From the NCBI GenBank assembly GCA_030141605.1, contig JAQGDQ010000403.1:147069-211068 (forward strand): 64,000 bases of DNA, written 5' to 3'. This document shows positions 35,701 through 64,000 of the stretch, in pieces. The position numbers and the translations under genes were made by a program. The notes beneath the pieces were generated by a model. The model was not told where the DNA came from, did not search any database, and was given only the letters and a program-made list of their open reading frames with translations. Numbering within the stretch: the first letter of the stretch is position 1; the number at the start of each line of letters is the position of its first letter. This stretch comes from Tubiluchus corallicola. Lineage: Eukaryota; Animalia; Priapulida.

Positions 35701-38345
35701 TTTTGTTTTAGATGATTATGAGTCATTTCGCTTGTATTCTTGCACTGCAGAAGACAATGATGGAAATGAATTATCACTTGTAGATGACGATGGGTAAGCT
35801 GCCTTCTCAGTTTTTTTAATAAAGAAACATTTTTTCATACCAATTAATACTAGTAGTTCGTACAAGTATTTGTTAGTGTATGTATGTACAGTACAAGGTT
35901 CTACTACAAATTGCTTTATGAATTTCAGTAGCTTCAGAAATTTTTTTGCTGAAAACACTGAATAAACTCATTAACATGGTAGATGCGAATCGTTAACATT
36001 GTGTGAATTAGGCAAATGACTATCAGACTATTGATAAATGATACGGATCACGTTATAGTTAAATATGGCTAATGTTCCTTTTTTGTGCAATTCGGAATCT
36101 TGAGACCGATATCTGATTCAGTACACACCCTCTCTTTACGATGTAAACAGCCATAATCAGCACGGCGAATGAAACAGCCCAGAACGAAAATCGATGTGCC
36201 TCACACATTCAATCACTGATCAATCTGGGGTCCATTCTCAAATAAACTTAAATAGAGAAGCTTTAATTAACTCGTGAACCTAATTAAATGTTCCTAGTCA
36301 TAGAAATATTAATGCCAAGATTAAATCAGTAAAATTGGTTATCATTGCAAAGTGGAATAATTTCACGATTTGTAACGACATCTTTCTCTTATAATTGCCA
36401 GTGTTTAATGTCATTGCAGATGTGTTGAGAGTGACGCCTATGACCAAGACATAGTCAGTACACCAACTGTCCGCCGTAGACAAAATCAAGATGACGAATA
36501 CAGGAAATACTTTGAAATGAAAGCATTCAAATTCCCAGATATGGATCAAGTGACATTTAAATGTGTTGTAACTCAATGTGAACCAGATGATACCAGTTGT
36601 TCATTGGTAAGTAAAATTTCTGTATTACTTGATTTTGTTCTGTACTAGCAGAAGCCTGATGTAGAATACATGGGTACTAATCATTTGAAAAATAAAAAAG
36701 ACAACATTACTGGTAAACTACTACAGAAAAGGTAACTTAGAAAAATTACCTACCTTCAGTAATAAACCACTTATTTTTTGAGCAATCAACTGCCCCTACA
36801 ATTACTTAAAGAAAGTAACTCTTTTTAAAAACAGCTCATCTGTAATGTCTGAGCGACAAACATTTAATACAGCTAACAATTAGGTGTGGAAGCAAAACGA
36901 AAAAAATCACAAATCAATGGAATCATGTATGACAGTTTTATTTTAAAGACACAAAAATCTTTTTGGCTAGAGCAGTAAGTTGTAAGTTACCGTAAAGTAT
37001 TTGTAGTAACTACATATATATTTCATCCAAGGATGTTACCGAAACTGAATTTAGAAACCGAAACCGAAATTTAACAAACATAAGAAATGGATATCGAAAT
37101 GAAACTGAACAGAAACACTTTTGCGAAACCAACTAGTATTAAAACTTAAAAAAGGGAAATTATCGAACCGAAAATTTAGTTTTGGTAACATCCCTGATTT
37201 TATCTAATACGAAAATGACGGATGGTAAAAAATTAAAATCATAAATTTGGCAGCCGGGTAAACAAATTCACAGGGAGAGCTCTACTGCAAAAAAAACAAC
37301 AAAACTAGCATAACTGAACTACTGTTACTGACATTTCCTATATCATTGCAACAGTAACTTACATGTTAATTTACGTCTGAATTCAGCAATGTGATGCTCA
37401 AAGCGACGAACCAGAAAATGTTAGGACTCCTCAGACAGCAAGTAGCAGGAGACGCTTCAAGCGTGGCGTAGAGGAAATAGTAGCGAGAGCCAGTCAAATT
37501 ACAGGTACAACCAAGCGGACCACTCCAACACCGCCTGATGGAAAAACGAGGCTGTTCGGAACGGTTACGGTGAATGCACCACAACTGGAACCCCCTACAA
37601 CAACTGAAAGTGAGTACAATGCTTACAAGATAAATACGATTTCAATCATAAACAAGATTTGACATTAAAGTGGATATTAACAGTATCGTGATGGCCGTGG
37701 CGCCTGTGAAATCATTAACGTTACTTAAAATTTGCTGTTATTTGATATAATCCTGTGAGACTACAAGTCTTTAGTCAAAAAGCTACAGAGCAATGGCAAT
37801 AAATTAAGGTTAAGGCCTGACACATTCTGTGCAGTGTCACACATCAGACATGAAATGAACTGTATCGTGATTTTTCACTATTTATTTCACACGAATGTAT
37901 AGTCCATTTTGTTTTTAAACCCACAAATCACATCTATTGCATATTTCAACTCTCTTTATGTTCATGACACTGTATCAATTTTGAAGTAACATTAGAATGT
38001 GTACATTTTCAACATCTCTTGGAAAGCAAAGCACGTAGTACATGGTAATACAGTAATACTAAGTTTTTATCTCATACAGCACCAGAAGAGGAAGCTGAGA
38101 AGCAACAATACTGTTTTACCGTATCTTATCTGGTGGCGTGTGCATGCATCGTCTTTGGGTTGATCATGATGGCATTTACCGCGTGTCTTTGCTTCTGCGT
38201 CCGCTGGCATCGTGATGCAAAGGCACGTCAGCTCGCCGGGGATAGTCAACAATCAATTCTGAGCACCTCAAGCAGAGTGGACATGACCCGCATACCTCGA
38301 CCGTCTTTGATACAGCGAGATAACAGTGAGCGTCCGCGTATCTGA
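32767..38345 (+). CDS. ZP (zona pellucida)-domain type I membrane protein, cuticlin/dusky-like, 8 coding exons
   Basis: Exons 32767-32842 (signal peptide), 33783-33961 (VTCNTDDI...FNGIVYAKDY...C...CG, ZP-N), 34170-34309, 34525-34676, 35712-35793 (SCTA...LVDDDG), 36420-36606 (C...AFKFPD...FKCVVTQC, ZP-C), 37387-37609 (furin site RRRFKR), 38080-38345 (TM and tail). All GT-AG with consistent phases. Confidence 0.9.
37028..37196. mobile_element. Small hAT-like MITE in a ZP gene intron
   Basis: TIR caaggatgttaccgaaac / gttttggtaacatccctg. TSD atttcatc / attttatc (7/8). Internal gaaacc repeats. Confidence 0.8.
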
Positions 38346-40759
38346 TGAACTCGTCTGAACAGAAATCGTGCTCAATCGTCAGTTAATGATTTGAATGTTC
38401 ATTTGGCTGCCAGACATATAAAATCAAACTGGAAACAATGTCCATTTCAATAAAGTTTAAACACTACATGAGCAGTAATTTAACATAAACCTTACACACA
38501 CTGAATTCATGATGACCATACCCTGGGTGATTCAAGTTGGTTATACAGAAATACTTAAGCAAGGTATCTATATTCTGAGTACTTACATCAAGTTATATAG
38601 TGTGACTGTGTTTTGTGTCTGTTAACAATATACAGGTAGCTACCTATTAAATTTAAAAAATTGTGCAATATCAAGTAATTTTATGGTTTTGCCTGAACTT
38701 GTAACATTTTTAAGTGTCGCTAATTGTTTGATATAGAGGTTTTGACACATACTTGGTGTCTGTTACTGGAAGTTTTTCTAGTCAAAGAACTTGGTTGAAA
38801 ATATTTATCTTTTAATTTGCTAGATAAGTATGGTGTCTTTACCCGTTATGCTGCATTTTGCTTTGTGAATAACATTTAATTTTTACAAACAACGTAATAT
38901 TCTATTAAAAGAAATAACAATGCATCATCTCCGAGTCTGCGGCCAATGCTGAAAAGCAGCTAAATACATGGTATGACACTGCCAGAAACCTCAGATAGAC
39001 ATGCTACTTTGCACGAATACTTAGGTATTTTAATATTGCAATGTAACTCGTCGCCTTTTAGACTGTGTCATATGTTGGTTTGTATTTATAAAATACTTTA
39101 AATATAAAAAAAAATCTGCTTATCAACGTATTGAACTTGGATCATATTCTATTGGTTTTAATCATTAAATTTTTATGAATTTGTCCTAATATTATATTGC
39201 TTGCAGTGATGAGTGTGTAATGTAAAATGTATGCAATTGCTAACTATTATATACATGTATATTGATATCTATCCTTTCAATTATTTTATGCATCACTGTA
39301 AGCTAAATCTGTGATAGTTTGTGTTTTGTAACCTAATCAGTCACTAATGTAACAGTATAATGTAACAAGATCTACAAGCCAAATTTCGGTTATAGAATTC
39401 ATTATGGTTAGTTACCCACTGAGAATTCTGCAAAATTACTATTTTAAGGAATCGTTAAAATAATATGTAATGTAAATAGAGATATGACTCATGGTCCATA
39501 ATCAATGAAAGTGTTTTTTAATTAATGTATCTGAAATTGATTTTGCAAACTTATGAAACTTATGCTCGGATAATCTTATTGGAACATATTTTTATTAACA
39601 ATGGTAACTGGTATAATATTAATTATAATACAATATTGCTTTTTTTAGAATAAACCAGTAGCATTCACGTTTTTCCAAACTATCTGATTTTGCAATAATT
39701 GAACACTACCTAAAATTATATGTAATAGAAATCTCATGGATATGGTATATCATAATGCAGTTATAATTACAATGAATCTACTGTAAGTCTGTAATGCCTC
39801 TACTATAATGTAGATAGAAGTTAGAGTACAAGTTGTATAGCTTTTGTGTTGTTTTTTTATGCACATGCTTATGTTTGAATTGTAAATTCTTCATTTTAGT
39901 CGCATTCAGCTACAATAACAGAGAAAAAAGATATATGGAAAAATTATTAAGCCAGCGACATAAATTTTCACACCTATGCAATTTTTATTACGAAGATTCC
40001 TCTACTGATACTAATTATTGACGAAATCTTCATAGCAGAAAGATTTGGGAGTATCAGAAGACTAGTTATCCTGTTAAAATGGTAAAAATAAAACTCTGCT
40101 GTATCAAACTACTAATAAACGCAACACTGTTATTCTCTACAATTGTATTCATTCTGAGTATGCGTGTGTGCGTAAAAATTTTGTCAACAAAAATAACAAG
40201 TTGCCGACATGTATTATGCAGTAATTTCAGTGTAGATAAAAGTACTCAAAACCATCAAACATTTCTGTTTAATAACATCTATTTAGGAGCTCGTAAAATC
40301 AGTATCACAATTTTTTGAACTGTTACAAATAGCTAATAATTATTGGAAAAGTGACTAACAATTAAAGATCTAAAAAAGTCGTGGCATAAAACTGTAAAAT
40401 CATATTGACAATTCATCCCTGAATAGTGACTACAATTATTGAAAATAGTACAAAATATTTCAGTACAACTATAATTTACAGTGAAACGCGACAACATAAT
40501 TAAATAGAAAATAATGGAAAAATGATATGTATGTCTCATCATAAACAGGACTGCAAATATTCACTGTACTTCAGTATGCTGAATGTTGATCACTTGAATA
40601 CTGCAAGAATACTACAAAAATCTAACGTAGCTATAAAGCAATTTCTTCATTCTGCTGTCGCACTGTACCGTCATAAGAGCAAAAATCACAAAACACATAA
40701 AATTTTAATTATAATCTTAATGCCAAGGTTATAATAAATAATGGATCATGGCACAAACC

Positions 40760-41528: not shown

Positions 41529-44500
41529 TTACACGGACTGCGTAGAAGCCTTGCGACTTTCTGACAACGACGAAACTGATTCATGTGTCTCCTCAAATTC
41601 CTTGCGAATATGTTGAAGTAGGACTGGGTCCGACAAAATTTCAACAGCTGTACATGCCAGAGCCTTTGCAGCAACGATGGTGTATTCCTGAGCTTCATCA
41701 GTTCCAGCTTGATCTTTAAAAGCCTTAGGTAGAAGTTAAAAACATTTCAGTTGATAAATCTACCACTTGACAACTTAAGATGTATAATAATGTGACTAAG
41801 ACACTTCTGCTGATTTACTGGTTCATTCTTGATTATGAGCGAAGTTCCAGTCTCGCCACAATAATCAACGTTAAGCACATTGCTATTAAATGCTAGATTC
41901 CAGCTTGCAGTTTGCTGCAGTTTATAAAAAATCTGAACTACTTCCAAACAAATGACGACGTTGTTTTCAAACAAATGTCACAAACACATACAGTGTTAGA
42001 AACAACTCTAATATTCACAAATCTTGCGAAAAAATTACGTTAAATTTACACAAGTATATGTATTGTCTTCAGAGCTTGAATTATTTCCATTAAATTCTGG
42101 AAATTTATGGACATGGCCTGGTGGATAAAATAAGATTTTGGAACATTGAGCCAGTTCACAATGTAGCTTTGCTGGTATAGACAAATTATATGATAATACA
42201 AAATAAGAAAAAAATCCTTGGCAGATTTGCAAGCCCAAGGTAAAAATATCATTTCCAAACGACAACTTTTTTTATTTATTTTATTTATTTATTATTATTA
42301 TCACATTCAGTACAATATAATGACATTAAGCACACAGTGACATCAAAATCATTACATCATACTGTATTAAATTGTTATGTTTAATACACTATCGTTATTA
42401 TAAAAGAATAATTGTACTGCAGTGGGATTGAGAAGCAAAGGCTTGTATAAGCCCACTGTCATGTGAACCCGATAAAAAAAGAATGGATGAGTGAACAAAA
42501 AATTAAAGAACTGGGAGAAAGGTTAGATCACACAGGAAGGGTAGAAGGATGTGTCAGTGGAAATGGTAGGAAGAAAGACAATAGATTGTGGTATGATGGC
42601 ATCAGCTCTAAAGATTTATCAATGATGCCTTGTTTTGCATAATCTGTACCAGGATTGTGGTATGACTGCTCCAACAGTTGTGGGAAATTAGGAAGTGTTG
42701 TACTTGTTAAAAATCATTGCTCTGTATTTCTTTTTAATTTTTTGAATTGGCTGAACAGTTATTAATTCATCATTTATGTCATTCCAAAGCCTTGGACCAA
42801 CATTTGCAATGAATTGCCGTGCCACGTCTATTCTACAGAAATTCACGACAAACTCCTTCATTCTGGTTGCATAACGCCGATTATTTGGTTGGACTGGATT
42901 ATTAAAGAACGTTGGAAAGAGATTATATTTAGTTTTATACATGCATGTAGCTGTATTCATGCGTATTAAATCGTCAACAGTTAAAATTTTATCAGTTTTA
43001 AAACATTTCACAGTTGCACGGCGCAAATAGTAAAAAACAGCTCTTACTGTGGTGTGGATTTGTGACTCGGTGCCAATGTAAAAAGTCGGATGTATGCTCG
43101 GGACGACCTGCGAGACATTTCCCATGTCAGTTGATCCACCTGGTCGACCTTCAGGAGCAGATATAAACACCGTGCCTGAAGCATTACAGAAACTTGCGAT
43201 ATTAATTCTTGTTCTGTGTTAAGTGGAAATAATACAAAACAAAATGTTGATGATTTATAAGCAGAAACAGCATTTTGAAGTACAAACATTTTATGAATGA
43301 GGTGTGATGGGCAAGCAGACAAAGTGAGGTAGCTACAGCAAGTTTTATTACCACTCACAGCTTCACATTGCATTGTTAACATGCAAGACATGCTCTATTC
43401 ATGTTGAATTGCTTCCTTACCTTGAAAAATCACCAAAGCAAAACAATAAGGTCCAAGCTCAACTTTCATAGAAAGTCATACATATTCAAGTTCACTGAAA
43501 AAACATTTTCTCCAGTTTTATGTGTCTGATACTTGAATATGTATGAGTTTCTACAAAAGTCGAGCTTTGACCTTATTGACTTGTTCTGGTGATTTCCCAA
43601 AATAAGGAAGCAATTCAACATTCACCGTTTCATCTCACCTCATCTACATAAATAAGACCTGAAGTGTCCACTATGTCCTAGCCAGTGAGTCGTTCTGAAA
43701 AAAGCACGAAAGAAAGAAGAGAGAAAAAGGGAGGAAGAGGCAGAGACAGACAGAGAAATGAAAGGGAGTGAGTGACAGAGTTTAATTAGTGGGTATTATT
43801 TACGAACTAGATGTTGTTCATGACATATGTATATACGCCATTCAACTAACTCTAAGAGATACGTAACACAAAACAAATTTCAAACTATAAGAGGCGGGAA
43901 AAGCAATACTAAACTCAGTAATTACCTAGCTCTTCAGCATATTTTTGATATACTGAGGCCATTACAGTATTGTGGTTCATAGACGCATAGCCTTTTGGTG
44001 AAAACTCATATTCAGTTTCGCAGTCAGTTGCCTTCGCTGCACCAATAATACACTGCACAACTCGCTGAGACAACAGCATGAGTTCAGTTTGATTTGGCGC
44101 GCGGACATAGATGAGCATCTCAGTTTCGGCAGGTATAATATTAGGCTTCACTCCTCCATTCGTGATAATAGCTGTCAAGAAATAAAACAGATCAACCAAT
44201 AAGTGAGCAGTTTGATTAAAATAATGTTTACAACACATTTTAGTTACATAAATTACATTATAGAGAAGGGAACTAGATAGATACAATCAATGCAATCAAT
44301 TGAATTGTAACTGTGGATTTCGATTTGAGTCTGATGAACACTTTTTATTGCACTGCCCATTGTATCAACAAACTAGGGTTGTTATGTTTGATAGACTAAA
44401 TGAAATGCTTCTGCCCGAAAACCTTAATATAGCTATCTTAGGAAATAATGATCTGTTGAAGTTGTTATTATTTGGAAAAGATGAATTTAACTATGTTGCA

Positions 44501-47500
44501 AAATGTAAAATATTCCAATGCATACATGACTTTATATTACGTACTAAACGCTTCCAGTAGTTTCTAGCTGATATAAAATGCATCAGTCTTAAATATTCGT
44601 ACATTAATATTTTCTAACCGTCATTTTCTACTAATGTCTAATGTAATCTTGTAGTAAAACTTGTCAGCTTGTGTAGTTACGTCAATTCTTACTGTAAATG
44701 TTACTAATGTCTAATGTAATCTTGCATACTTTGTGATCTTTGATCATTCGTATCGGCCCGGTGCCCAGTAATAAAGTCGCCAGAATAAAGTCACGGAAAA
44801 AGTCACAATTTTGGCTAAGAAAAAAAATCACAATTAATTTTGGCTAGGGTTAGGGTTAGATTTAGGAGTTAATGTTAGAGTTAGGGTTGTGATTAGGGTA
44901 AGAGTTAAGATTAGGCTTATTTCTTTTTTCTGTGCCTTTCTCCTCCGACTTTTTTCCTGTGATTTTTTTTCTGTGACTTTTTTACCTGTGACTTGATTAC
45001 CAGGATTCACAGCCTCAGGCATGAGTTAGGATAGATAATTGAACAAACATTGTAGTATTACAGTTTCATAAAAAGTTCATTAACGAGACAAAATTACTTC
45101 CAAAAGTTCAACATCAGAACTATTGTTATAGGGATGTTGATTCCCCTGGACAGTCCTGTACCAGGTCCGGACTACTGTGAAGCGTCACGACCTAGAGTAT
45201 ATTTACCAAGTTATTTGCATTTCCTTCTTCGTCTAACGATGCTGGTAGCTGATATAAAAACAGTTCAGGCATTAAGAAAAAGAAGCCAAAGAACAGAGAG
45301 AAAAAGCAGGCAGAGTGGAGAGAGCTGTTTTGTCTCTGAGATTTGGCATAAAGTTGAGAATAACTTCGTTGTTATTGTACTTTATTTTGGACTAGCAAAC
45401 AAAGATTTTTTCTCTAGTGAAATGTGTTGAAAAATAAACGAAACCGATTTTTCTCAAGAGTGAGTTCTAAAGTCGTTCCTGTTAGTTTATGACTTTACAC
45501 TTTAAAATCTGACCAAAAGTTATAATAAACAAGAAGCAACAACACTCTGATGCTTCACAAAAATCATTGAACCAGTGACATCTGGTGAACTCCAAGCAAA
45601 CATATAAGCATAAAACCATACTAGTCGTTTTATTTAGGGATTTTGCTCTCGATTAATTGAATTACTATTCAATAGCCGATTATATCAATTTATAGATGGT
45701 TAAAATCTCGAAAAATTCGATTAACCTATTAAATGCCCATCTCTATGCATACCACTGCTATTACTACTTACCATGAATTCTGCACTTGGGCTTCATTTGC
45801 TGTCTTAACAGTGATATGTTATTATAACAGGCTACCGCAGCATCTAGTGCATTTCGTCCATCCCAGGGGGCAGCAGCTGCATGAGCCGCTTTCCCGTGAT
45901 ACTTCACAGTCAACTACACAAGAAATAAAAACTTCAGCAAAATGAAATGAAACGCTTTACATACTCAAAAAGTAGGTGTACAAGAAGTGATTAACTTGAA
46001 AACTTTAGAAAAATTCAGTAATATAAATTACTTTTTACTTTGTAAATGAGAATTGCTTTACCATTGTAGAATAACGGAATTTAACAATAGAAATTTATTT
46101 TCATTCACTTTCTTGTATTGGTATTTTTAGTATTTAGTTTAACATCAAGATTTTTACATATTTAAAAAAATACGATCCAAACCATTTAGATCCGTCTTTT
46201 ATATAAATTAATTATATTACATTTAAAAAGTTTTCATAATAAAACATTTTACAAGACAATATGTGTGACAGACAAGCACAAAAGTTAGGATTTTCTAATT
46301 TAACGTTAAGTTAATAAAACATGCAAATCAATACCACATGCAGTTTTAGTGTTACAAGCATCACTTTCATATACACACATAGGAGAAGATTAAATTAGTA
46401 GTAAATGAAAACCAGTGTTTTGCAAATATAAATTTTATGCAAAACAAAGAAATAAATGAAATTGCTAGCCAGAGAAGATAGACAGCGCTAATCCACATAA
46501 GCAACTAACACAAGCAACTTCTATGCTATTTAAGCTCGAACATTTAACAAACAGTAACAAAGCAATGCATTTGTGGTAGATTGTTGTTCGTTGTTCACAT
46601 GATGCACGCTACCAGCAATAGAAATTACAATCATAACAGTATGTACCTAGGATGGTCATCTTTAACAGATTACATGTACAGTCACCACCATAGCACAAAT
46701 CCAGGCCTAATTTCAAAGCAATTTCCAGCAAAATATTTGAAATTAAACTACCAAAGCAGAAATGGCAAAAGAGCCTCTACTGATTAATCCTGAAAATACA
46801 TTTTATTTTAAACCATGTTTTTTGTTTATAAAAATATTCTAATCATATAAAGTAGTATATAACAAAGAATTTTAATTTAAAAGCTAACCCATTTACAACA
46901 GTGATTTGAGCACAATAGGTACTACATCAGCTATAGCTGCAGAAAACAGTGCAAGCAGCTGGTAACTCCAAATACTAGCAAGGCCTATTATTAATAGTAA
47001 TAAGTTTTAAGTTTGATCCACAACTAAAAATCACACATGATACATGTTGAATCTTATACCTTAAAAAATGTGGCGCATCAGTGGATAGTTGCGAAAATAT
47101 AATTTTTTTCTAACTGCATGCTAGTTATTGCAACATAAATAATTGATAGTTGTGGCTAAAAATAGGTGAAAGTGTTGAATATGTAAGTTTAACTGATGGT
47201 CAGAGTAACTGATAGCTAAAAAAGGTGGTTACAGTCAAATCAATGACTCACACTAATCTGGTTTTACTGAGCATCGGTCTAACATGTTTTTTGGCAAAGC
47301 TTGTCGTCTAATTCTTCAAATTCACATTTAAAAATACATTATACAGTTTATCCTTCAAATCACATCGTTTATCAGTCCAAATATTAAAACAGTTTGCCAG
47401 AGGCAGATAGAACACACTCCAATAAACTATGCATAAATTGACAAAGCCAAATGTTGTTGTACTTTTTCACTAATTCTAAATGTACTTTGCTACCAACTAG

Positions 47501-50500
47501 TTCATTTAGCCTAGTCATTAAATTTATCAATCTCAATCTAAGACAGCAAATTCAGGTAATAAAATACTTATTTCCAAATGGTTGCCTGAAATTTATGCTA
47601 AATGCACGTTAATGGCAGCATTGCAGAATCCAGTAACATTATTATGGATCCCTTAACCAGAAGCTACTGGTGGTATTCATGCACACATGCCATGATTAAA
47701 TGAATATGTTTGCTCCCCCGGATTAAATATTAGTAACTAACTAATAGAAAAAACATAGCCGTAAATATGGTTACAAAAAATCAACCAGCTAATTCAAATG
47801 CTGTTAATTTCCAGTCTTGCACTCACAGCATGCACTGCAAAGGCCAACAAATATTCAAAGCCAGGAAAAATTGCAATAGACCAAAGACATGCATTTCCAA
47901 AATACTTGCCGCAGTTTGGGCCAGATATATACGATCATTGCAATTAAAAGCATAAGGATGAACCATCATTGCAGACTCAACTTCGGAGAAAGCTCCCGCC
48001 ATGAGCAAATCCTTTTTTCCACATCCTCCCTCCTCCGCTGGTGTCCCCAAAACTATCAACTACAATTGTACACACAACACTACATTATGATTACAGATAC
48101 TTTGAATACAGGTGCTTTAAGCATAACTGCAAATACTCACAGGGGAAGTATTTGCACAACGAGGGAAGATAACTGAATTTATCAACCGCTACCAATAATC
48201 CTGCTGAAGACTGGGATGAATTTCAGTACCACTAAGATATGAAACATTTTCCGATCCAGGAATATGCAAGGAGATCCATGAACATCCCGACCACTGTATG
48301 CAACTATGTATTACTAATAATTAGCCGAAAAAAAAACAAAAACAAGGAAATGCTGTCAAACATGATTAAAAGAATGTGCCCAACTCATCAGAGAGAATAT
48401 TATCACGAAGATAACTGATGCAAAGTACAAACAAAGTCGGAGCTAACGCAGATCCTTGCAGAACACCAGGAGGAACATAGTGAACAGTAAAATTCCAGCC
48501 CATCAAAAATGACATGCGGACATCAATAAGAAAAAAATCGATAAGATTAACTTTAGAGATAGTTTGAGTTTCCAATAGTTTGAGTATGAAAAGCAGCCTT
48601 GTGCCAGATCTACCACGTTATCAAAGGTCTCGAAAATATTCAGGGGCATTGCTCTTGGTAACGCTTAGTGCAAGTTAGAGTAGAAATGGACCGATGCAAG
48701 TCACAATTCAATACTCAAATGCTATGAGCTACAAGACAGGTTTTAGTTATGTTTGAATGCAGGTACATGCACTCTTAATGAGAATTAGTAGGTGCTAAAT
48801 GTTAACAAGATTAACACTTACACCCTAGCTTTACAGAGCAGAGATTCCACCCTATTCTACTCAGAGATTATACTCTGGAAATAAATTTTCTGTTAAGGAT
48901 GCTCACAAAACTCTTGTTTCTTGGCTTAAAGTCCCATTAGACAACTTATGACATGAAATGGAACACAATTTCCAGAAAGAAATATTAAATAGTAAACACC
49001 CATTACAGTTTCCAAAGAAAAGACCAATGTTAAAAGTGGATAAAAACCACTGAGCACATAAACTAAGAGAAAAACCTGCAAACGTATGACTAAATAAACA
49101 ATGCAAAAATTAAAACAACTACTATTTTCAAACATGGAAAAAATCTGCCAAAATTATTAATACTAATTCAAAGTTATTTTAACTTTATTTATCTTAATGC
49201 GTCTTCATAGTATTTGAAAACGAAAACTATTGTCACCCCGATAAGCAAGGATTGCATTTTATCATAACTAATTTTTAAAATTCAGTAAAGTAAACAGAAT
49301 TCTGATTAAAATATCTTGTATATAAATTTTAAAATGACAAATAAACAGTAATCTGATTAAAATACCTTAGATATAAATTTTAAAAGGACAAATTACATTT
49401 GTTTACAACGTTTTGCAAGGATTATGTGCTACAATGGTGCTATGTATGCACACATGCATATGGATTGACTGCAAAGTCGTCATAGTCATAGTCAGATGTT
49501 GACTAAGAAGGGGTAGTACTATCAAACAGACATTTGCAGAGCCTTGCGTAAGTCCTTACTTGTAAACAAAAAAACAATTGACTGAGTGGAGTCAGTTGTC
49601 TTATGTGGAAAGCAGACAATAGCATATTTACACCAAAGGCAACTTCACTAAATAAAGACAAGGTATAATGACTGAGCATACAAGGTTAGTAGCAGCAGCA
49701 ACAAGTATATACACTACACAGAAAGTTTACTTATACATGTAAGTAGATATATATATATATATACAAGAGACACAAAATAACAAGCAAATTTTCAAAACAC
49801 TGTCAAATTGCCTTCAAATACTGAGCACAGACCACAGATTCAATTAAATTGCATCCTTGTTTCCATGAAAAGGATACATAAAATACAATAATATTAATTA
49901 GCATCACTGAAATTAAAATTAACATCATAATATAATGAGTATTCATTGTAGACTTGTAATATTCTGTCATTCAGTGCATTGTGAACAAAATTTATGCAAC
50001 AGTTTCGTTTGGAGATACTTTAGCGTCACTTGTGACTCATTCACATTTTTAAATTTTACATTTATTACGAGTTTACGAAAATGGCAGTAATAATCTCAAA
50101 AAGCCATTTTGGGCTGTTGGACTGATATGACAGTGTCACAAGTTAACAGCAGAATAACATCTTCACAGCAAATAACTTAAAGACATAAATGTTTAAAATG
50201 AGCAATTTTTAGCATTCTTATTCATATCAGAATTTCAACTGTTAACAATATAATTGCAGATTTTCACCAGTATGTAATTCTTACTTTCTCATTAGCCAAC
50301 CATAACATATAGGCATCATTACGTGAAAACGGGTGGGACATTAAAGCACAATCCACTCCAACAAAAGCGTCAGCATTAAGTAGATTTATCTTCCCACCCC
50401 CACCTTCTTCTGCCGGCGTGCCTAGAACAAATAACTAACAAAGACTAATACAATGAAATAAATTTACAAGTATTTATTTAGAGTCCAGTCTATTCCAGGA

Positions 50501-53500
50501 AGTGCATCAACAGTGCATGGATCTATCCTATACAACCACCCCCCCTCCCTCCCCCCATAGATCAATCCTCTTCTCCTGTTAATGTGTTTGGAACAAATAA
50601 CTAACAAAAATGTATCAAAATGCAATCTATACATACTCATTTTATTACTTAACAATAGCTGCAAAAGTTCTTGCACATTTTGACCAACGAGACTTGCTCA
50701 CCTACTTCTAAGATACTTTCATGCTACTGAGAAATCAAAAGCATCTTATCTACGAATTTAAAGAAATGTAAATTTATCAAAGGCATACCTTAATTAGTAA
50801 TTATTATTTGTAATTTTAAAACCGACATTACAATTGCTCTATAGTAAAGCACATACAAATAGTAAATAACAATCATCCTACAAACCCAAGGCAGTGAATG
50901 CATGTTCTCCTTTTGTGTAAAGAATGTTCCATTTCTTTAGCAATACTAGTTTGTATGTTTAGCTGTAATGGTAAACTTACACTAACGGAAATGCTGTAAC
51001 TTAAAGATATCTTCACAGACTATCAGAACACCTGCTTTGAAAGAACATTAACACCAGCAGTGTTCATACAGAAGTAAAATACAGTACTTGCTTATTTTTC
51101 ATCGATCTTTTTGGTAGCTGAATTTAGCCTGATGTTCCTCCACGTGTGCATATGCATGCGTATGTATCTATGAGTAGATCGGTGAGTAAACATGTGCAAG
51201 AAAGAGTATCATTAATATAAGTAAACTGAGCAATGTCAAGAAAAGTACATTTTGTGATACAAATTATATGGTGCATTTTCCTGTCTTGGTCTCCCTCACT
51301 CACTAAAACACAATTTAGCAAAAAAATTAATTTTTCAGTCGTGTATTGTTATGTGTGTAGTCTAAACATTTCATTAATTCTATCTTCATGGTAATACAAT
51401 AATATTACAATTGCTAAATGTACAGTAAATGTTGCAACGTGGGTTTGCAAGACAATGTAAGTTTACATGCCAACCCTTCACCTATACATTGTAATTACAA
51501 AATAAAGATAATGTGGTACAATATAGTATAAGTATAGATTACAGTTGAAATTAAACAAATTCTAACAATTATGACACAGTGAATCATCATAGCATATGCT
51601 AGATTAAATAATTCTTTTAACCCTGTAAAATACAATTATACTGATTAAAATCATTAAAGCGGTATTATTGTTCATGATTTGCATTTGTGTTGTCACTTAG
51701 TGTATGATAGGTTCAATGTTAATGGTAAATGGTTATGAAAAACAAATTCATGCAATGTTATTCATCTAGATATGCTAGCCAATGCATGCAATGTTATTAA
51801 TTTAAAACATTTTGGCATCAGTTTTGGTTAAATGTCATCTTTACTAGAAGAGAAAGTTTTTTGAATTGTTGTAACAATAAAGGAATCTAAACACTTTTGA
51901 AAATCAGGCTAAAAGTCAGTTGCTGTACACTTAGTTTCCCATATCAAAGGAGTATGATGAGTTAGCCATAGCATAAGACATTAACAAATAACAATGCAAA
52001 AAAATATATATTCAAAGCAAGTAGCTCAGTAGCATTCTTAGCATTATTCCACTGCAAATCACAAGCATGCATTGTGACATGCTAAGCTTACTTTGTCTCT
52101 AGCCAACAGTGATAAACGAGCATTGCTAAACGAGAATGGGTGAGACATTAGTGCACAGTCCATTCCACGAAAGGCATCACAATTGATTAAATCTACTTTC
52201 CCACCCCCACCTTCTTCTGCCGGCGTGCCTAGAACAAATAACTAACAAAGACTATCAAAATGCATCCACCCGTACGGTGCTACTTAAATAACCAAAGCAT
52301 GCAGACATCATCAAATGATAACTGGTCTGACAACAGATCAAAATTCCTTTCAACTAAAACAACAGCAATGCTTCAATCTAACTTCCCTCTAAAACCTTTC
52401 CTGGTGCCTGTTGAAAAAATAACTAACAAAAAAACCTACCAGCAATGTATCGATCCATAAACAATATGACATCAAGACTTAAAGAGCTAATTCTAAGATG
52501 CTCTCAGGCAGGCAACATCTCAAATATGTTCGAATTGCCTAACATAAATAAGCATTCAATTACAAGGTTCAAGTTTTATGAGTTTTGAGTTGACTGGAAT
52601 ATTTGTCATTAAACTTATGACAGCTGAAACACCAAGAAAAACAAAGAATAATGTTTACAGATGTGACAAACATTGTTGTCAAAATTAACAAAACCGTACG
52701 AATGGTTCAATAATGAAATCAGAGATCCAATGGTCAAGTGCTTGCTGCTAGTCTCATTTGATAATGGTCCGCTTTACAATTATAAGAATACATGTAGACC
52801 CAATGCAAAGCTATAAAGTATAAACCTATCTAGCTATTATAAGCACTTTATCATGTGTTTGATTGTATTGCTGCTCATCCACTTTTACATTCAACTATGC
52901 AAATGTTTAATTAATTTAATTAGTTAATTTAACCAATTAATTGCTCCTAACATGCACTAAAACACACTTTTCTAGGATCAATCTAATACCAGAAATTTAT
53001 GATGAATGTAGTTTGTGCTATGGTGGTGCATTGCAAAATGTCGCGTGCTAGAAAATAAATGTTCATTTGGGACACAATGTGCCCTACCTGGTCAAAAGCA
53101 AGATAAAGATCATTTACAGTAGAAGTCTTAAAAGGATGCACCATCATTGCTGCATCTACAAGACTGAAAGCATCACTAGCAATCATGTCAATTTTGCCAC
53201 CGTATCCCTCTTCATCCGGAGTACCGAAAACCACCAACTTGCAGAAAAAAGCATTGTGAGTCAGTTAGGTATTTTAGTCAGTGTTCTAAGAAAATAAAAC
53301 AATGGGCGAAAGACAAACCTACAGTGAATGGAGGGCGATAGTTTGCGCCAGCATGAAAAATGTGAAGCAAGTAATGATAAAGCATCATGCTAGTATCAGT
53401 ATTAGTTTGCTAACATCTTTATTAATGTTAGTCCTTAATTAACAAGTTTAGTGTTGTAAAATGATTGGTTTGTACATGCCATGCACTATAGATTGAATGG

Positions 53501-56219
53501 TAGATACGTGTTTAATGCATTAAGCTCACTTTTTCATTAGTTAAGTGGGCAACCATTCGTATCATTTATAGAAAATAGATGCATCTTTATGCATAGTCCA
53601 TTTCAAAATTCAGCAAAAGTTTTGTCATCGAATAAATCTATTTTTGCTCCCCACCTTCTTCTGGTGGTCCATCTAGAACAAGTGCAAGACAGATCAACGG
53701 GCAAAACATTAAGTGTTGCTCAGTTAACAACAAACATTTAGTCTTAATAGTCCCAAATAGCATTTAAGTTATGCTGTCAACAAAAGCATTCACATCTAAC
53801 TAATCTCAGGTAACGATACATGAAGTGGCACGTCTTAAAATAAGACCTATCATGCATTAGTGCTGCCTTGCAATGTGCCTATCATTCATTGGTAGTGCTA
53901 TTCATTAGACAAATAGCTAATACAATGTTGAAAGCAAAGGCAGCACTAATGAGTGGTAGGTATGTTGCAAGCGAAGGCAGCACTAATGATTGGCAGGCAT
54001 ATTGCAAGCCTATCATTCATTAGTGCTTCCTTTGCTTACAACATTGAATAAGCTATTTGTCTAAGCTAGTGGAATGAGAGTTGGGAAAAACTAATGCATA
54101 AATGTGTGTGCATTTGTCGTAATTAAGTTGATATAAATATATACAGACAAGAACCTAAATTACTTTATCAAAGCATTTAAACTTGAATGTAGTTCTGGAA
54201 CAACAAACCTTTATTTTTTACTGTTCAGGTTTAAAGCGACAAAAGACATTTTCATACATTTCTAACTAAATGTTTTTGTTTATTTAAATAAATAGTTGAC
54301 TAGGATGTTGACTGGCCTGTTTTGTTGGACTAGGATGGTAAATGTGAAAATTAGATCCGCACTTTTGAAAAAACTTTAAAAACAGACCACACAACTGCCA
54401 AACAACTGCTACGTACAAGAGCAGTGAATCTGCGAAGAAAAAATAAAATACCTATAATTGAAACACCTCACATTCTAATCATTTTTTTACTAAGGCAATT
54501 CCTAGAACCATAATGTTAGTTAAGAAACATATGCAGTTAGGTGGCATTAATCGTAGTTGCAAAAATAACTAACCTAAGCAGCGCAGCAACAAAAAACACT
54601 TCAGCAAAAAACACAATAATTATTATTCCGGCAAGGCTAGTTACTTGCCTCATCCAGGCCCAAATATCTGCGCTGGATTTCTGAAATACCGCCTGGATGA
54701 ACAATCAATGCAACACTTATATTCTCAAAGACCTTGGCATTAATAAAGTCTATTTTACCACCACTAGACTCCTCAGCAGGAGAACCTAAAACTGTGAGCT
54801 ACAAGCAAGAAATCGTCAGTATTAACTAGACAATCAATTGCAGCATTTTTCACATGTGCAGGTATGTCACATTACAAGTAAAAATTCCTACAAACACAAA
54901 AATAGATTCATGTTTTTTGCAACTGACAGCAAAACACAAGAGATAAATCTCATGGATATGCAAAAAAAAATGTGGACGTATTGTGCAGCAATAGGAATTT
55001 GGGTATATTATCTCTTATTGAAAACATTGATTGAACAACAGTTAATATAGCCTAAAAAACCTTATCAATGTTGAGATTGTTAGGATACATCATGTCAACT
55101 AGATGGAAGAAAACTCCTACCCACAGCAAGCAATGAGATAAACAGGCCCACTAATTTGGCACTTAGATAAATTATAGCTTTTATTCTTTATCTTTAAAAA
55201 ACCACAATTTTTCAAAAAATCCAAAATTTTGAAAAATGAAATATTAAATATATAGTGTTCAAATATCTTTAATTGCAGAAGTTCTTTTAACCAATGATTT
55301 GAACACCCGTCCCAAAAACATTTCTTTAACTTTTATCTGTTTCCAGATGCGAAAGGATTGAAAACTACTGCTTTAAATGTCAGTGAAATGTTTTGCATTT
55401 AAATTGTAAGAGGCCTTGCTGATAAATCAAATTTTATACCAAAGTATCATGTTTTCATCAATCACACCATGAATAAATCACAGACAAAATCAATTGTTGC
55501 TGGACAAGGCAACACTAATTTACACAATGGTATTTTTGCTCAAACCTAATTCTAACGCATTAGTGGTTTTCTTTACAGTCTTTACCATAGCTGTCATGTA
55601 AAAGTGTACCTCTGTTAATTCACATTTAACTTTTGTATTGTGGCATTTGCAATTATATATGATATTATTATTTAACAAGAAGAAAATGGAACTATAAAGA
55701 CATCATTGTCTATTGATAAAAACTTAACTGTGAGGAATTTATCTAGTTTAGCAGGAGACTGTAAAAAGCTACTGGATCATTTTGGAGTTTTTAGCGTAAA
55801 GCACTTATTAAACTGTATGTGTATACAATAAATTATAAAAAATAATGTAAAACTACCTTTCCGTTAACTTTGCCAGTTTCTAAAGCAGCTTTAACACCAA
55901 GTGAAGCGGCCAGGCCAGCTTCACAAATTAAGTTATGTCCGCACGCATGCCCAATTTCTGGAAGAGCATCGTATTCACATATAATAGCCACATTCGTCCC
56001 TTCTCCTCTAGAGAATTCAGCACGGAATGCCGTAGGAAGCTTAAATTCTCTGGTAACTTCAAAACCATGCTTTTCAAGAAAATCAGTCACAGCTGCATGA
56101 GCCTTAACTTCTTCAAAACCCAACTCTGGGTTTTCCCATAAATATTTGCTTAAGCTATGCAGCTCCGATCGCTTTTTGTCTATGGCACTAAAAATTGTGT
56201 CACTTGCAGTACTACACAT
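41529..56219 (-). CDS. PM20D2: Peptidase M20 domain-containing 2 (M20D/Acy1L2 metallo-dipeptidase) with an array of alternative second exons
   Basis: Exon 1 56219-55857 ([23 protein letters not shown]); one of five exon-2 copies; exon 3 45913-45772 ([19 protein letters not shown]); exon 4 44171-43926 ([13 protein letters not shown]); exon 5 43175-43048 ([15 protein letters not shown]); exon 6 41723-41529 ([11 protein letters not shown]). Phases 0/0/1/1/0 are consistent. Confidence 0.95.
42270..43010 (-). mobile_element. 3' end of an L2/Crack/CR1-group LINE in PM20D2 intron 5
   Basis: [19 protein letters not shown]...YATR...[11 protein letters not shown] is a typical ORF2 C-terminus. (AATA)n-like tail at ~42270-42300. 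Confidence 0.7.
43401..43621. mobile_element. Foldback/MITE with ~90-bp imperfect inverted arms
   Basis: atgttgaattgcttcctta...catacatattcaagt (43401-43491) versus acttgaatatgtatga...taaggaagcaattcaacat (43531-43621). Confidence 0.85.
44300..44560 (+). mobile_element. LINE ORF2 C-terminal fragment (CCHC-like end)
   Basis: CNCG...[13 protein letters not shown]...LLFG...FILRTKRF, typical of non-LTR ORF2 termini. Confidence 0.7.
44757..45010. mobile_element. MITE-like element with aaagtcac/gtgacttt subterminal repeats and an internal TTAGGG-like tract
   Basis: aataaagtcac repeats on the left, gtgacttttt repeats on the right, tagggttagggttag in the middle. Confidence 0.6.
47910..48059 (-). CDS. 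PM20D2: PM20D2 alternative exon 2e (150 nt, GC donor)
   Basis: TAG|[50 protein letters not shown]|GCAAGT. Confidence 0.9.
48370..48680 (-). mobile_element. Degraded non-LTR reverse transcriptase fragment
   Basis: [13 protein letters not shown] (GVPQGS motif) and an upstream FETFDNV (AFD motif remnant). Confidence 0.6.
50285..50434 (-). CDS. PM20D2: PM20D2 alternative exon 2d (150 nt)
   Basis: TAG|[50 protein letters not shown]|GTAAGA. Confidence 0.92.
52092..52241 (-). CDS. PM20D2: PM20D2 alternative exon 2c (150 nt)
   Basis: TAG|[50 protein letters not shown]|GTAAGC. Confidence 0.92.
53088..53237 (-). CDS. PM20D2: PM20D2 alternative exon 2b (150 nt)
   Basis: AAG|[50 protein letters not shown]|GTAGGG. 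Confidence 0.9.
53530..53685 (-). pseudogene. Decayed PM20D2 exon-2 copy (pseudoexon)
   Basis: [11 protein letters not shown]/(frameshift)[14 protein letters not shown]...MHLFSIND, with stop codons. The GTGAG donor is kept and no AG acceptor sits at the expected position. Confidence 0.8.
53846..54064. repeat. Complex inverted-repeat cluster between exon 2a and exon 2b
   Basis: 53905-53960 pairs with 54009-54064 (~56-bp arms). The unit cctatcattcattagtgctgcctt occurs in both orientations. Confidence 0.85.
54649..54798 (-). CDS. PM20D2: PM20D2 alternative exon 2a (150 nt, GC donor)
   Basis: TAG|[50 protein letters not shown]|GCAAGT. Confidence 0.88.
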
Positions 56220-59590: not shown

Positions 59591-59926
59591 GACATACTTG
59601 TTGTGGCCATTTTAATGACAAAGGTATATTATGCATTTTTAGTTTGGATGAATTTTGTAGTAATAATAAGCTCACCAGTTGTATCCGACAAAAAAAACGC
59701 CTTTATGTATATACCTGTATAATTTTCCTTTTTGTACTTGCCAATGTATGTAATGTTATTTGCACAGTTGCACTCTACAGAAGAGAGAATAGCAAAACAG
59801 CGATAACAAATAAAACAGCGATAGCAAATAAAACTGATTGAATCGAAAAAAAATAACGTGGACCAAAGACATGGTGGAAATAAAGACTGCGTCGAGCAAC
59901 TCAAGTTGTCGACAAAATTGAATAAA

Positions 59927-61204
59927 ATGGCTGAACACGTGAAATCTAGGAAAGCAAAAGTAAAAATTTCGAAAAATAAAAAGAAAGGCTGGCGAAAGCA
60001 TGCAGATATTAGTGACGTAGAACAACACTTAGAAGATAGGCGCCAAGAGGAACGTGCCGGTGGGTTAGTATCTGAGAAGCCTGATAGTAGTCTGTTTTTC
60101 ATCGAAAAGTCTGCATCAAAAAACGTCGAAAAGCCACGAAAAACAGAAAAACTTAAAGATATCAAGTTGAAGTGTTTTTCTAACTTGGAGCCTGACCCAA
60201 GAGTTAAACCAGGTTATCTAGGTCGTTTTAAACAGACTGCTACATTGAAACAAAAAGTGGAACATACGCAATGTAAAAATCGCTTGTACAAAAACTCGAA
60301 AGAGAGACGAGGAAGAAGAAACAAGGCAAAGTCACCACCTAGGTCAGTAATTTATGATATATGGGGGGCACCAGAACAGATTCCTGATGTTGCCGCAGTT
60401 CAGAAATTAGAGGAGTTTTATGCTATATCTACGAAACGAAAATTGCCTGCTCCTCCAGATCATCTCAAAACTAAACCATCGAAGTTGGCAGCAGTGATTG
60501 TTCCGCATGCAGGTGCATCTTACAATCCTGCATATGATGATCATCAGGAATTACTCAGGCAGGCTGTGAACTTAGAAGAAGAAAAAATTAAAATCACTGC
60601 CAAAATTGATAGAGCCACCACAGAAATGTTTCCTACAAAAGACGAAGCACCAACAGAAGAAACATGGCTTCGTGAAATGTCGGAAGGGCTTAACAGTGCA
60701 GGGAAGGAAACAACAACCAAGTGCATTGATCAAGAGGACTTTTTTATTCCAGCAGTGAAAAAGAATGAACGTAAACCCAAGAAAAAGCGAAATATGGAGA
60801 TTAAAGAAAAGGCTCTGGGTAGTTTGAAAGCTAAACTAAAAGAAGAAAGGGTGAGAAAAAATGCCATCTACAATCTTAGATCAATAAAAAAAGAAATATT
60901 TCAAGAAGAAAGAACAAAACAGGAAAGACAGAACAGAAAAGCTCAAAAGCAGCTGGCAAAAATTAATGACCCAAAGCGCATTGGCCGAATGAAATATCGG
61001 GATCCAGAATTAGAAGTTAAATTGAGTAGTGAATTGGTTGGATCACTGCGACAGCTAAAGCCAGAAAGTAGTTTACTTGAGGACAGATTTAAAAGTTTGC
61101 AAAAGCGATCAATTATTGAACCTCGAGAACGTAGTTCAATAGTTAGAAAATATAAACGGAAGACGTACGAAAAGGCAAGCCACAAGAGTGTAACAGTAAG
61201 TTAG
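59927..61204 (+). CDS. NOP53: Ribosome biogenesis protein NOP53 (GLTSCR2/PICT1), intronless
   Basis: SKNKKKGWRK...D, LFFIEK (AIM-like), YDIW, PHAGASYNP, ELVGSLRQLKPE..LLEDRFKSLQKR.IIEPR. First ATG at 59927; the ORF track starts at an upstream GTG (59858). Confidence 0.95.
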   Translation: MAEHVKSRKAKVKISKNKKKGWRKHADISDVEQHLEDRRQEERAGGLVSEKPDSSLFFIEKSASKNVEKPRKTEKLKDIKLKCFSNLEPDPRVKPGYLGRFKQTATLKQKVEHTQCKNRLYKNSKERRGRRNKAKSPPRSVIYDIWGAPEQIPDVAAVQKLEEFYAISTKRKLPAPPDHLKTKPSKLAAVIVPHAGASYNPAYDDHQELLRQAVNLEEEKIKITAKIDRATTEMFPTKDEAPTEETWLREMSEGLNSAGKETTTKCIDQEDFFIPAVKKNERKPKKKRNMEIKEKALGSLKAKLKEERVRKNAIYNLRSIKKEIFQEERTKQERQNRKAQKQLAKINDPKRIGRMKYRDPELEVKLSSELVGSLRQLKPESSLLEDRFKSLQKRSIIEPRERSSIVRKYKRKTYEKASHKSVTVS

Positions 61205-62200: not shown

Positions 62201-63337
62201 TTAGGTTTGCTCCCGGCCATCGCCATTAGCCATTTTTGAACATGATCGGCAAAATTCCAGGGACACGTTGCTGTTTTCGACATGAAGACAAATTCCTCCA
62301 CCAATGAGTGTCTTACTATTAACACGCTTTGAAGCTGGCTCGCTGGAACAAAGAGAATCATTCACGCGTTTCCGACTTACTTCAAATGACGTACTTAAAG
62401 CAGTTTTACTTGCACTCACTGACTGCAGAACAGAAGATAAAGCACTGTCATTGGCAATCACATTTTTCAAGTATAAAATTTCCTCCCGGAGTGAATCTAT
62501 TGTCTTTTTAGATGCTTCGAGTTCTGAACACAACTTACTGTTTTTATCGGATAACTCCTTGACATTGTTTTCTAAACCAGTGATGTATGCTTTTTTTCTT
62601 TCACGGTTAATTTTTGCTTGGATGGCATTTCTCTTGTTTCTGTCTGTGACATTTGCTAAAGTAGTGTTGTCATCATCTGCATCTGTGTCGTCAGTACTAT
62701 ATTTGTTTGTTTGTGTTGTTTGCTGCACATCTTGCTTTTTTGACTTGCTTGCTGGTGTTTTGGTAGTTCTAGTTTTCAGTGAAGCTGTTTTAGTGGTCCT
62801 TCTGCTCCCTGTTTTCTGATTAGAATTATTTGGCATTTGAACAGTTTCCTTGGCAAAAACTGAACTGCTACTGAAAAGACTTACAGCTGCGACTCCTGTT
62901 TCTGTTTCAACAGCAGGAACAACATCCTCTGCTTCAGTACTTTCTAAAATTGGGAGAACAATCTCCTTGCCTTGTTGAACTTGTTTCTTTTCAATCTCTG
63001 GTGACTCGGGCCGATCTAAGCATGCAAGGTCTTTATCACCAATTGTTATGGCAACATCATTTGCAGTCAGGTCATCAGTTAAGTCATTGTCAGCATCTGG
63101 AACATTCAGTAACGCTTCTATAAGGCTTCCAAAATCTCCATCATCTGTAGCTAATGACTCAAGATAAGCTGGTTCGACTGAGTATTTGTCAAGATCACTC
63201 ACAGCAGTGTAACTATATTGCTGAGCTTGAGCACTGCTGTACTGCGGTGGCTGATATTGATACAACTGTGTGTATGATGGAGCTGATTCAAGATCTGGAG
63301 TGTTCATTAGATCTGGGTATTCAGTGGGCTTTGCCAT
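62201..63337 (-). CDS. CREBZF: CREB/ATF bZIP transcription factor, CREBZF (Zhangfei)-like, single exon
   Basis: Basic region RNAIQAKINRERKKAYITGLE plus leucine zipper. The C-terminal GGICLHV...VSLEFCRSC motif is characteristic of CREBZF. ATG at 63337. Confidence 0.85.
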   Translation of the reverse strand: MAKPTEYPDLMNTPDLESAPSYTQLYQYQPPQYSSAQAQQYSYTAVSDLDKYSVEPAYLESLATDDGDFGSLIEALLNVPDADNDLTDDLTANDVAITIGDKDLACLDRPESPEIEKKQVQQGKEIVLPILESTEAEDVVPAVETETGVAAVSLFSSSSVFAKETVQMPNNSNQKTGSRRTTKTASLKTRTTKTPASKSKKQDVQQTTQTNKYSTDDTDADDDNTTLANVTDRNKRNAIQAKINRERKKAYITGLENNVKELSDKNSKLCSELEASKKTIDSLREEILYLKNVIANDSALSSVLQSVSASKTALSTSFEVSRKRVNDSLCSSEPASKRVNSKTLIGGGICLHVENSNVSLEFCRSCSKMANGDGREQT

Positions 63338-64000
63338 AATCAACAGCCTAGTTTAAATGTAAACTTTGAATGCGTGCATCATTTTGTTGAAATTTTGTCA
63401 AATGGAAAGTTACCACAATATAATCCATGGCATTACCAGCCACTGTAAACCTAAAAAAAACAGAAAAACTGTGAACATAAAAACTCAACTTTGTAGAAAA
63501 AATGGCAGTAACTTCTGTTATGCATTATTCGCTAACAACTGGATTCATATACGTGAAACCGCTTGCAAAATACAAAACAAATATATACACGTCACATGTT
63601 TATACTAATAATACTATACTAATAAAGGCTGTGGAGTCGGAGTCGGCAGTAAATCTATTCCCGTGTGCGTATACATATATACATACACATACATATATAT
63701 ATCAGTCTAACCTCGTTATCGCGCCACTGTCCGTCTAGGGCAAATTTTTGGCGAGAGGCGAGTATGGCGAGATAACGGGAATATAACGAAGTTAGTCTAT
63801 ATGTATATACATACTGTACATAATAGTTGATTAACATAGCGTTCCTCTATGTACATATAAAATATATTTCGCATTATGATACCAATCAGCATTAAATCAG
63901 AAATGAAAAAATGTCATAAAAATAATCTTAGAATGTTACTTTTTTATTTAAAAAACCTTTTTCGAGTATACACTTAAATGCAATAAACTTAGCAAAAGAT

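Follow-up and report, generated by a model that had tools for sequence, protein, structure and literature searches.

A single PM20D2-type gene of the priapulid Tubiluchus corallicola carries, within the 64,000-nucleotide stretch of DNA analyzed here (the window), five intact copies of the exon that supplies its catalytic base, together with three decayed ones. In the account that we regard as probable, one copy is likely included in each mRNA, the choice is likely steered in part by docking-site pairing in the RNA, and the substrate pockets of the resulting enzymes are predicted to differ.

A PM20D2-type dipeptidase gene

By its sequence, the gene is a PM20D2-type (M20D) metallo-dipeptidase of predicted activity. 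Its top matches are PM20D2-like proteins of Priapulus caudatus, at 67% on exon 1 and 67% on exons 3-6, versus 52% for the next match on the latter. A tree of the constitutive exons joins it to Priapulus (100/99), the two lying in a clade of ecdysozoans (100/97). Both the catalytic and the dimerization domain fold are supported, via the Pfam domains (PF01546 and PF07687) of the closest relative, P0003, which is 66% identical over the constitutive part, and via a structural model of Priapulus isoform X2 (pLDDT 95.7), which superposes on human PM20D2 (7YH4) with a Z score of 54.0 and an rmsd of 1.2, and also matches HmrA. All M20D metal ligands and the general-base Glu are present, as HACGH (93-95), Glu-Glu in every exon 2, HP and QIHT, and they align with Cys105, His107, Glu140/141, His168 and His370 of N-AGA.

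The likeness to human PM20D2, the Xaa-Arg or beta-alanyl-lysine dipeptidase (7YH4, 8ZEI, 8XZC, 8ZEL), extends over the fold and the HACGH, PAEE, HP and GSTDMGN motifs, and includes the final His as well as the Tyr that is mutated in 8XZC. Staphylococcus aureus HmrA (3RAM; MEROPS M20D) shares the M20D fold with the Priapulus X2 model. Human PM20D2 differs in having Asp at exon positions 45 and 50, where none of the five variants has it, and in its absence from the list of human tandem-duplicated exons (PMC8373072).

Five intact and three decayed copies of exon 2

The gene lies on the minus strand, as do all of the features located below. Exon 1 (55857-56219) encodes 121 residues, including the HACGH metal ligands Cys93 and His95, and ends in a phase 0 donor. 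Downstream follow, in order along the gene, 2a (54649-54798), psi1 (53526-53698), 2b (53088-53237), psi2 (52271-52432), 2c (52092-52241), psi3 (50441-50610), 2d (50285-50434) and 2e (47910-48059). The constitutive remainder comprises exon 3 (45772-45913), where the dimerization domain starts (GKAAHA), exon 4 (43926-44171), exon 5 (43048-43175), with GSTDMGN and the region of the last metal His, and exon 6 (41529-41723), with the coding end and the stop. The junction of exons 5 and 6 is present in a contig of sequencing run X2, presumed to be RNA, and is the one junction of the gene so supported; X2 yielded no contig over exons 1-4, which is uninformative, and no exon-2 junction was seen.

A preceding reading of the sequence alone had proposed five intact 150-nt exon-2 copies of phase 0/0, free of stops and bounded by splice sites, with no other exon duplicated. 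Both statements held: all five copies are open in frame 0 behind AG acceptors, and tblastn of exons 1 and 3-6 returned one copy each within the 64 kb. The donors are GT in 2b, 2c and 2d, and GC in 2a and 2e, a detail absent from that reading. Any one copy joined to exons 1 and 3-6 gives a 407-residue frame with zero internal stops, and the frame is also preserved when exon 2 is skipped. Exon 2e carries odd residues (GGCGKKD).

The psi copies, whose coordinates are approximate, are extra full-length copies that resemble 2c (psi1, psi3) or 2d (psi2) and have decayed by indels and stops, with a donor-like GT retained in psi1. Their best local alignment scores (141, 151 and 112) exceed the shuffle maxima (83, 98 and 82). 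In the intron between 2a and psi1, nested inverted repeats at 53845-54064, with 56-nt arms that are 89% complementary, would form a long hairpin, possibly a small mobile element.

Divergence and selection among the copies

The five intact copies are 47-76% identical in nucleotides, the upper value being that of the sisters 2c and 2d. Their pairwise amino acid identity is 40-70% overall, 49-83% over the first 35 residues and 7-40% over the last 15. The Glu-Glu and HP motifs are invariant in all five, as the initial reading had it, and so are G-K and F. It also called the last 15 residues hypervariable, and the low identity bears this out; variability alone is nevertheless no sign of selection, because the tail is variable in the whole family, the 15-residue window ranking 4 of 375 by entropy among 120 homologues.

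Synonymous sites are saturated or nearly so in all pairs except 2c/2d (dN 0.21, dS 0.65), and the comparison of dN with dS that had been proposed as a check gives dN below dS over the whole exon in every pair. The older copies a, b and e remain open at saturated dS, and the three younger, c/d-like copies have decayed. Dead younger copies beside exact older ones are, we infer, the pattern expected from selection on the intact ones. Within 2e, contigs of sequencing run X1 reveal four allelic differences. Each falls on a third codon position, and three are silent and one changes Glu to Asp; no differences are listed for 2b in that run, where 2a, 2c and 2d are thinly covered. Purifying selection on the variants is thus supported by dN below dS in all pairs, by frames open at saturation, by the third-position changes in 2e and by the conservation seen in scallops, described next.

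The same exon is swapped in other species

Relatives were sought among 386 fetched proteins, many of them bacterial or unnamed, of which 347 could be parsed. Identical flanks with a swapped exon 2 are found in Priapulus X2/X3 (among XP_014669764-66), Argopecten X1-X3 (XP_069102682/689/697), Mizuhopecten X1-X3 (XP_021355348-50) and Pecten X1/X2 (XP_033739665-66). The swapped segment, of 50-51 residues, is the sole difference between these RefSeq isoforms, which are predicted automatic models; such models usually rest on aligned RNA. In a control that accepted any internal swap, 8 of 12 pairs proved to be swaps of exon 2, and no other single exon was swapped in any. Isoforms of Haliotis, Babylonia, Patella, Acanthaster, Patiria, Argiope and Parasteatoda were checked and set aside, their differences not being exon-2 swaps, and Porites P0131 and P0081, which contain identical repeats, were omitted from the count. 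The RefSeq sets share exon and borders with the window's array and differ from it in having two or three annotated variants versus five intact copies; we found no paper describing them in the literature searched.

In scallops, each of the variants A, B and C has its own supported cross-species clade (100/99, 99/86 and 100/99, respectively). Between species, 11-13 of 15-16 tail residues are kept in A and B, and 7-11 of 15 in C; paralogous variants share only 1-6 of 15. That orthologous tails are held and paralogous ones are not answers the doubt raised by the family-wide variability of the tail: judged from these models, a diverged scallop variant, once formed, is held. The Priapulus X2 exon is nearest to 2d (29 of 50 residues; tail 6 of 15), and the X3 exon to 2e (27 of 50) and 2a (25 of 50). 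An exon-2 tree places 2a closest to the X3 exon (86/81, not firm), and its 50 columns leave orthology between the window's and the Priapulus variants unsettled. A Logan fragment, P0250, is a relative of the X3 exon (37 of 47 residues) that keeps 12 of 15 tail residues and reads through into the intron. An Ala follows the exon in P0250, consistent with a GC donor like those of 2a and 2e.

Grouping the priapulid and scallop genes in one clade is rejected (p-AU 0.0005), and scallop B and C fall together with single-exon paralogues from scallops (95/92). Together these results make at least two independent origins of the swapped exon 2 likely on phylogenetic grounds; an ancient duplication lost many times is the less likely alternative. 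For Pecten, variant A (P0179, versus P0076/P0127) belongs to a separate, nearly identical gene model with the next accession, so that at this locus duplicated genes and duplicated exons occur side by side. A RefSeq model of the spider Parasteatoda, isoform X3 (P0061), skips exactly exon 2, which indicates that the 0/0 borders are conserved there.

Is one copy used per transcript?

Between constitutive exons that are each present once, the window has a tandem row of homologous internal exons that agree in length and phase, and exon 2 is likely spliced one copy per mRNA in T. corallicola. Dscam-like mutually exclusive use had been put forward at the outset. Alternative use is supported indirectly, by models of four species in which the same exon is swapped and by a candidate docking site that fits; strict exclusivity is less certain, as the model of Priapulus X1 (439 residues) contains both copies. 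Two tandem copies also occur in models of the snail Batillaria (447 residues) and the sea cucumber Apostichopus (449 residues), both "hypothetical protein" entries in which ab initio prediction may have chained the copies. Exclusion may thus be leaky, or these models may be wrong.

The fold appears to have a slot for one copy of exon 2. In a structural model of the double-exon Priapulus X1 protein, residues 119-167 fall below pLDDT 50 and lack secondary structure, a result partly built in, since most alignment rows cover one copy. As modes of exclusion, neither steric hindrance nor frame-based decay fits the cluster: the introns between copies, at 846-2225 nt, are too long for steric exclusion to apply, and 150 nt keeps the frame on double inclusion or skipping, so decay of mis-spliced RNA cannot police exclusivity.

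A candidate RNA docking site

A putative docking site (46681-46702) lies in the cluster's last intron, 1208 nt past the 2e donor and 768 nt ahead of exon 3. Its 17-nt core is the perfect complement of a candidate selector 60 nt downstream of 2b (53012-53028); no perfect inverted repeat in the 9.9-kb cluster is longer, and its length is reached in none of 200 dinucleotide shuffles. The 22-nt site, defined from 2b alone, also forms a 20-bp duplex (three G-U pairs, one bulge) with a candidate selector 846 nt downstream of 2d (49419-49440), at -29.1 kcal/mol and 0 of 100 shuffles, background duplexes elsewhere in the window reaching -31 to -33 kcal/mol. An unbiased all-against-all scan of 15 intron segment pairs placed its two lowest p-values (0/30 and 2/30) on this same site, and the docking/selector pattern occurs at exactly three places in the window. 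A downstream intronic site is complementary to sites behind several variants, significantly so for 2b and 2d.

Signals at the other copies are fainter. The 2a selector is weak and depends on site length (3 of 100 shuffles as good with a 33-nt site, 65 of 100 with 22 nt), as is the candidate for 2e. For 2c the search returned no selector, 77 of 100 shuffles being equally good, and a candidate near 51250-51280 was rejected because it pairs at only -12.6 kcal/mol. An upstream docking site of the Dscam exon 6 type was not found in intron 1 (44 of 60 and 6 of 60 shuffles as good), and 2b folded with its own selector is no stabler than shuffles (z -1.09). The selector region at 53007-53031 also pairs with the coding interior of 2b at 53136-53160 (-20.6 kcal/mol), a pairing that may silence the exon in place of docking.

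Protein factors may contribute too. The sense strand carries 14 copies of the hexamer TGCATG where 6.2 are expected (2 of 500 shuffles), which gives it a rank of 39 among 2795 hexamers. Some of the copies lie 17-132 nt downstream of 2b, 2c and 2e, a weak hint at RBFOX-type regulation; the Quaking-type ACTAAC is not enriched. In C. elegans, 11 of 29 clusters have RBFOX elements at their flanks (PMC4165533).

The candidate site fits, by its position and complementarity, the type of control described for Dscam exons 4 and 9, for which docking sites downstream of the cluster are known (Yue et al. 2016, PMC4691838). The serpent exon 4 cluster is a comparable system from the same work. In those cases many variants are backed by conservation and compensatory mutation, whereas here two of five have a significant candidate selector by sequence complementarity; and those genes encode a receptor or a transcription factor, whereas this one encodes an enzyme.

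Predicted consequences for the substrate pocket

In the Priapulus X2 model the tail forms the loop that follows the metal His, along with the first part of the strand leading into the dimerization domain. The pocket was mapped on N-AGA because the literature searched gave no paper on the human PM20D2 structures. For the N-AGA inhibitor complex, PMC7209930 describes an acyl pocket, itself loose, that is lined by Phe170, Phe185, Leu186 and His168, with Glu140 and Asn191 helping to bind the side chain of the C-terminal residue. Glu140/141, His168, Phe170, Phe185, Leu186 and Asn191, all in contact with metal or ligand there, align with exon positions 9/10, 34, 36, 44, 45 and 50, in a distant alignment (E 8e-20) in which pocket positions may be off by 1-2 residues. 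From 2a to 2e, position 36 reads G/F/F/F/Y, position 44 R/L/S/L/I, position 45 Y/Y/L/W/Y and position 50 E/Q/K/K/A. In 2b, PDEE replaces PAEE, a change present in 4 of 120 homologues, three of which are scallop variant C. In carnosinase 2, D195 is presumably the equivalent of the exon-2 metal His. Two residues past that equivalent ligand, Y197 also shapes the S1 pocket of the enzyme (PMC11626516).

The five variants are thus predicted to differ in their substrate pocket. That each copy would give a different pocket had been suggested when the array was first noticed; the N-AGA mapping and the conservation of scallop variants support differing pocket residues, and enzyme activity itself stands as a prediction.

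Neighboring genes in the window

The genes flanking the PM20D2 gene are unrelated to it. Tail to tail with it lie fragments of a cuticlin/ZP-domain gene (33700-39000, plus strand; PF25057, PF00100), in keeping with an ecdysozoan genome. An intronless frame at 16853-18538 (minus strand) resembles peptidylglycine alpha-hydroxylating monooxygenase, or PHM (PF01082 and PF03712), has a stalk of 12-residue tandem repeats and a C-terminal hydrophobic segment, and looks like a retrocopy or a single-exon PHM. Single-exon frames encode protein phosphatase inhibitor 3 (6345-6713, plus strand; PF07491), NOP53 (59825-61204, plus strand; PF07767) and a bZIP factor (62201-63352, minus strand; PF00170).

Weighing the explanations

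It is conceivable that one-of-five splicing is real and alters the chemistry of the enzyme little, the tail drifting and the variants persisting because they serve regulation, stability or dosage (through tissue-specific inclusion, for instance). Few stretches in the family are, after all, as variable as the tail, the N-AGA acyl pocket is loose, and the catalytic residues, like the Tyr, Arg and His of the constitutive exons, are common to all isoforms. Scallop tails that are conserved between orthologues and not between paralogues, radical changes in the pocket, the reversal of charge at position 50 and the rare shift from PAEE to PDEE make us think this rather unlikely. Three copies have already decayed, and one could suppose that just one or two of the remainder are used, the others being relics yet to decay or sources of minor splicing noise; the GC donors of 2a and 2e, the unusual residues of 2e and an RNA contig that supports the junction of exons 5 and 6 alone would sit well with that. 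Yet a, b, c/d and e are synonymously saturated and still open at exactly 150 nt, the allelic changes in 2e fall only on third positions, selector-like sites lie behind 2b and 2d, and the Priapulus models use variants resembling 2a/2e and 2d, all of which renders the supposition improbable.

Very improbable, in our estimate, is a cluster of cassette exons that are often included in tandem, giving longer proteins or unproductive transcripts that tune the enzyme level. The frame would permit it, and two-copy models exist for Priapulus X1, Batillaria and Apostichopus; opposed to it are the single slot in the fold (keeping in mind how far the double-exon model was built in), scallop models that are single-copy isoforms only, and the chance that the snail and sea cucumber models chain copies ab initio. 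We give next to no credence to an assembly artefact or collapsed tandem genes, even with tandem PM20D2 genes in many invertebrates (Saccoglossus, Haliotis, Pecten). The sequence-only reading already thought an artefact unlikely, and its confidence was justified by the divergence of the copies, the single state of the other exons, the unrelated flanking genes, the same layout in Priapulus and, as an argument against a local artefact, run X1 contigs that span 2b and 2e together with their flanking introns.

If, as we favor, one copy is chosen per mRNA with partial steering by the docking site, then pairing behind 2b or 2d would loop out the intervening exons and bring that variant's donor near exon 3. 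Exon 2e, the last copy, would be the default when pairing is absent, and 2a and 2c, for which convincing selectors are wanting, would need protein factors of the RBFOX type or weaker pairings. Catalysis would be unchanged in all five, which keep Glu-Glu and His, while positions 36, 44, 45 and 50 would reshape the pockets in which dipeptides or N-acyl amino acids place their acyl or N-terminal and their C-terminal residues. A bolder proposal, which we advance tentatively and which may well prove wrong, is that invertebrate PM20D2 has in exon 2 a frame-symmetric cassette bearing the catalytic Glu and a wall of specificity, made splicing-switched independently in at least priapulids and scallops (perhaps also in the snail and the sea cucumber); a Dscam-style site would here pick among five pockets, some charge-reversed for acidic versus basic substrates.

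Known parallels

Mutually exclusive exons that remodel the core of an enzyme are a well-known kind. For instance, exons 6a/6e of coq-2 are mutually exclusive in helminths, annelids and molluscs (Tan et al. 2020, PMC7434440). These equal-length exons, found in several invertebrate phyla, remodel the enzyme core and change substrate choice, much as we envisage here; the differences are that coq-2 has two exons and proven function, versus five intact copies, a catalytic base inside the swapped exon and predicted function in the present gene. Tandem exon substitutions in human KHK and ACOX1 likewise place a homologous exon at or near catalytic residues with the catalytic residue conserved, though these are pairs only, of one ancient chordate origin (PMC8373072, PMC9741552), in contrast to the repeated arrays discussed here. 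Convergent exon duplications are common (PMC9741552), and the variable residues of mutually exclusive exons tend to fall near functional sites (bioRxiv 10.1101/292813).

We found no description of a PM20D2 exon array in the literature searched, mostly outside subscription journals, and mollusc or priapulid exon catalogues may list it. The earlier remark that no such system was known for this family holds to that extent, even if the kind of system is familiar. What makes the array notable is the combination of five intact exons bearing the catalytic base, a candidate docking site and a swap that likely arose repeatedly at this one exon.

Outlook

Five proteins (three in scallops) that are identical but for a 50-residue segment with the catalytic base and a pocket wall amount to a natural experiment on specificity. 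Since the isoforms differ in one segment only, they could directly reveal what governs substrate choice in the M20D family, which is poorly understood. That the same exon has likely been duplicated more than once, independently, in distant phyla points to an alternative to the whole-gene duplication seen in other invertebrates, and the candidate docking site suggests that this mechanism may operate in a scalidophoran, outside the arthropod genes in which it is best studied. If the bolder proposal holds, one metabolite-repair gene would have become a set of adjustable hydrolases for dipeptides and N-acyl amino acids.
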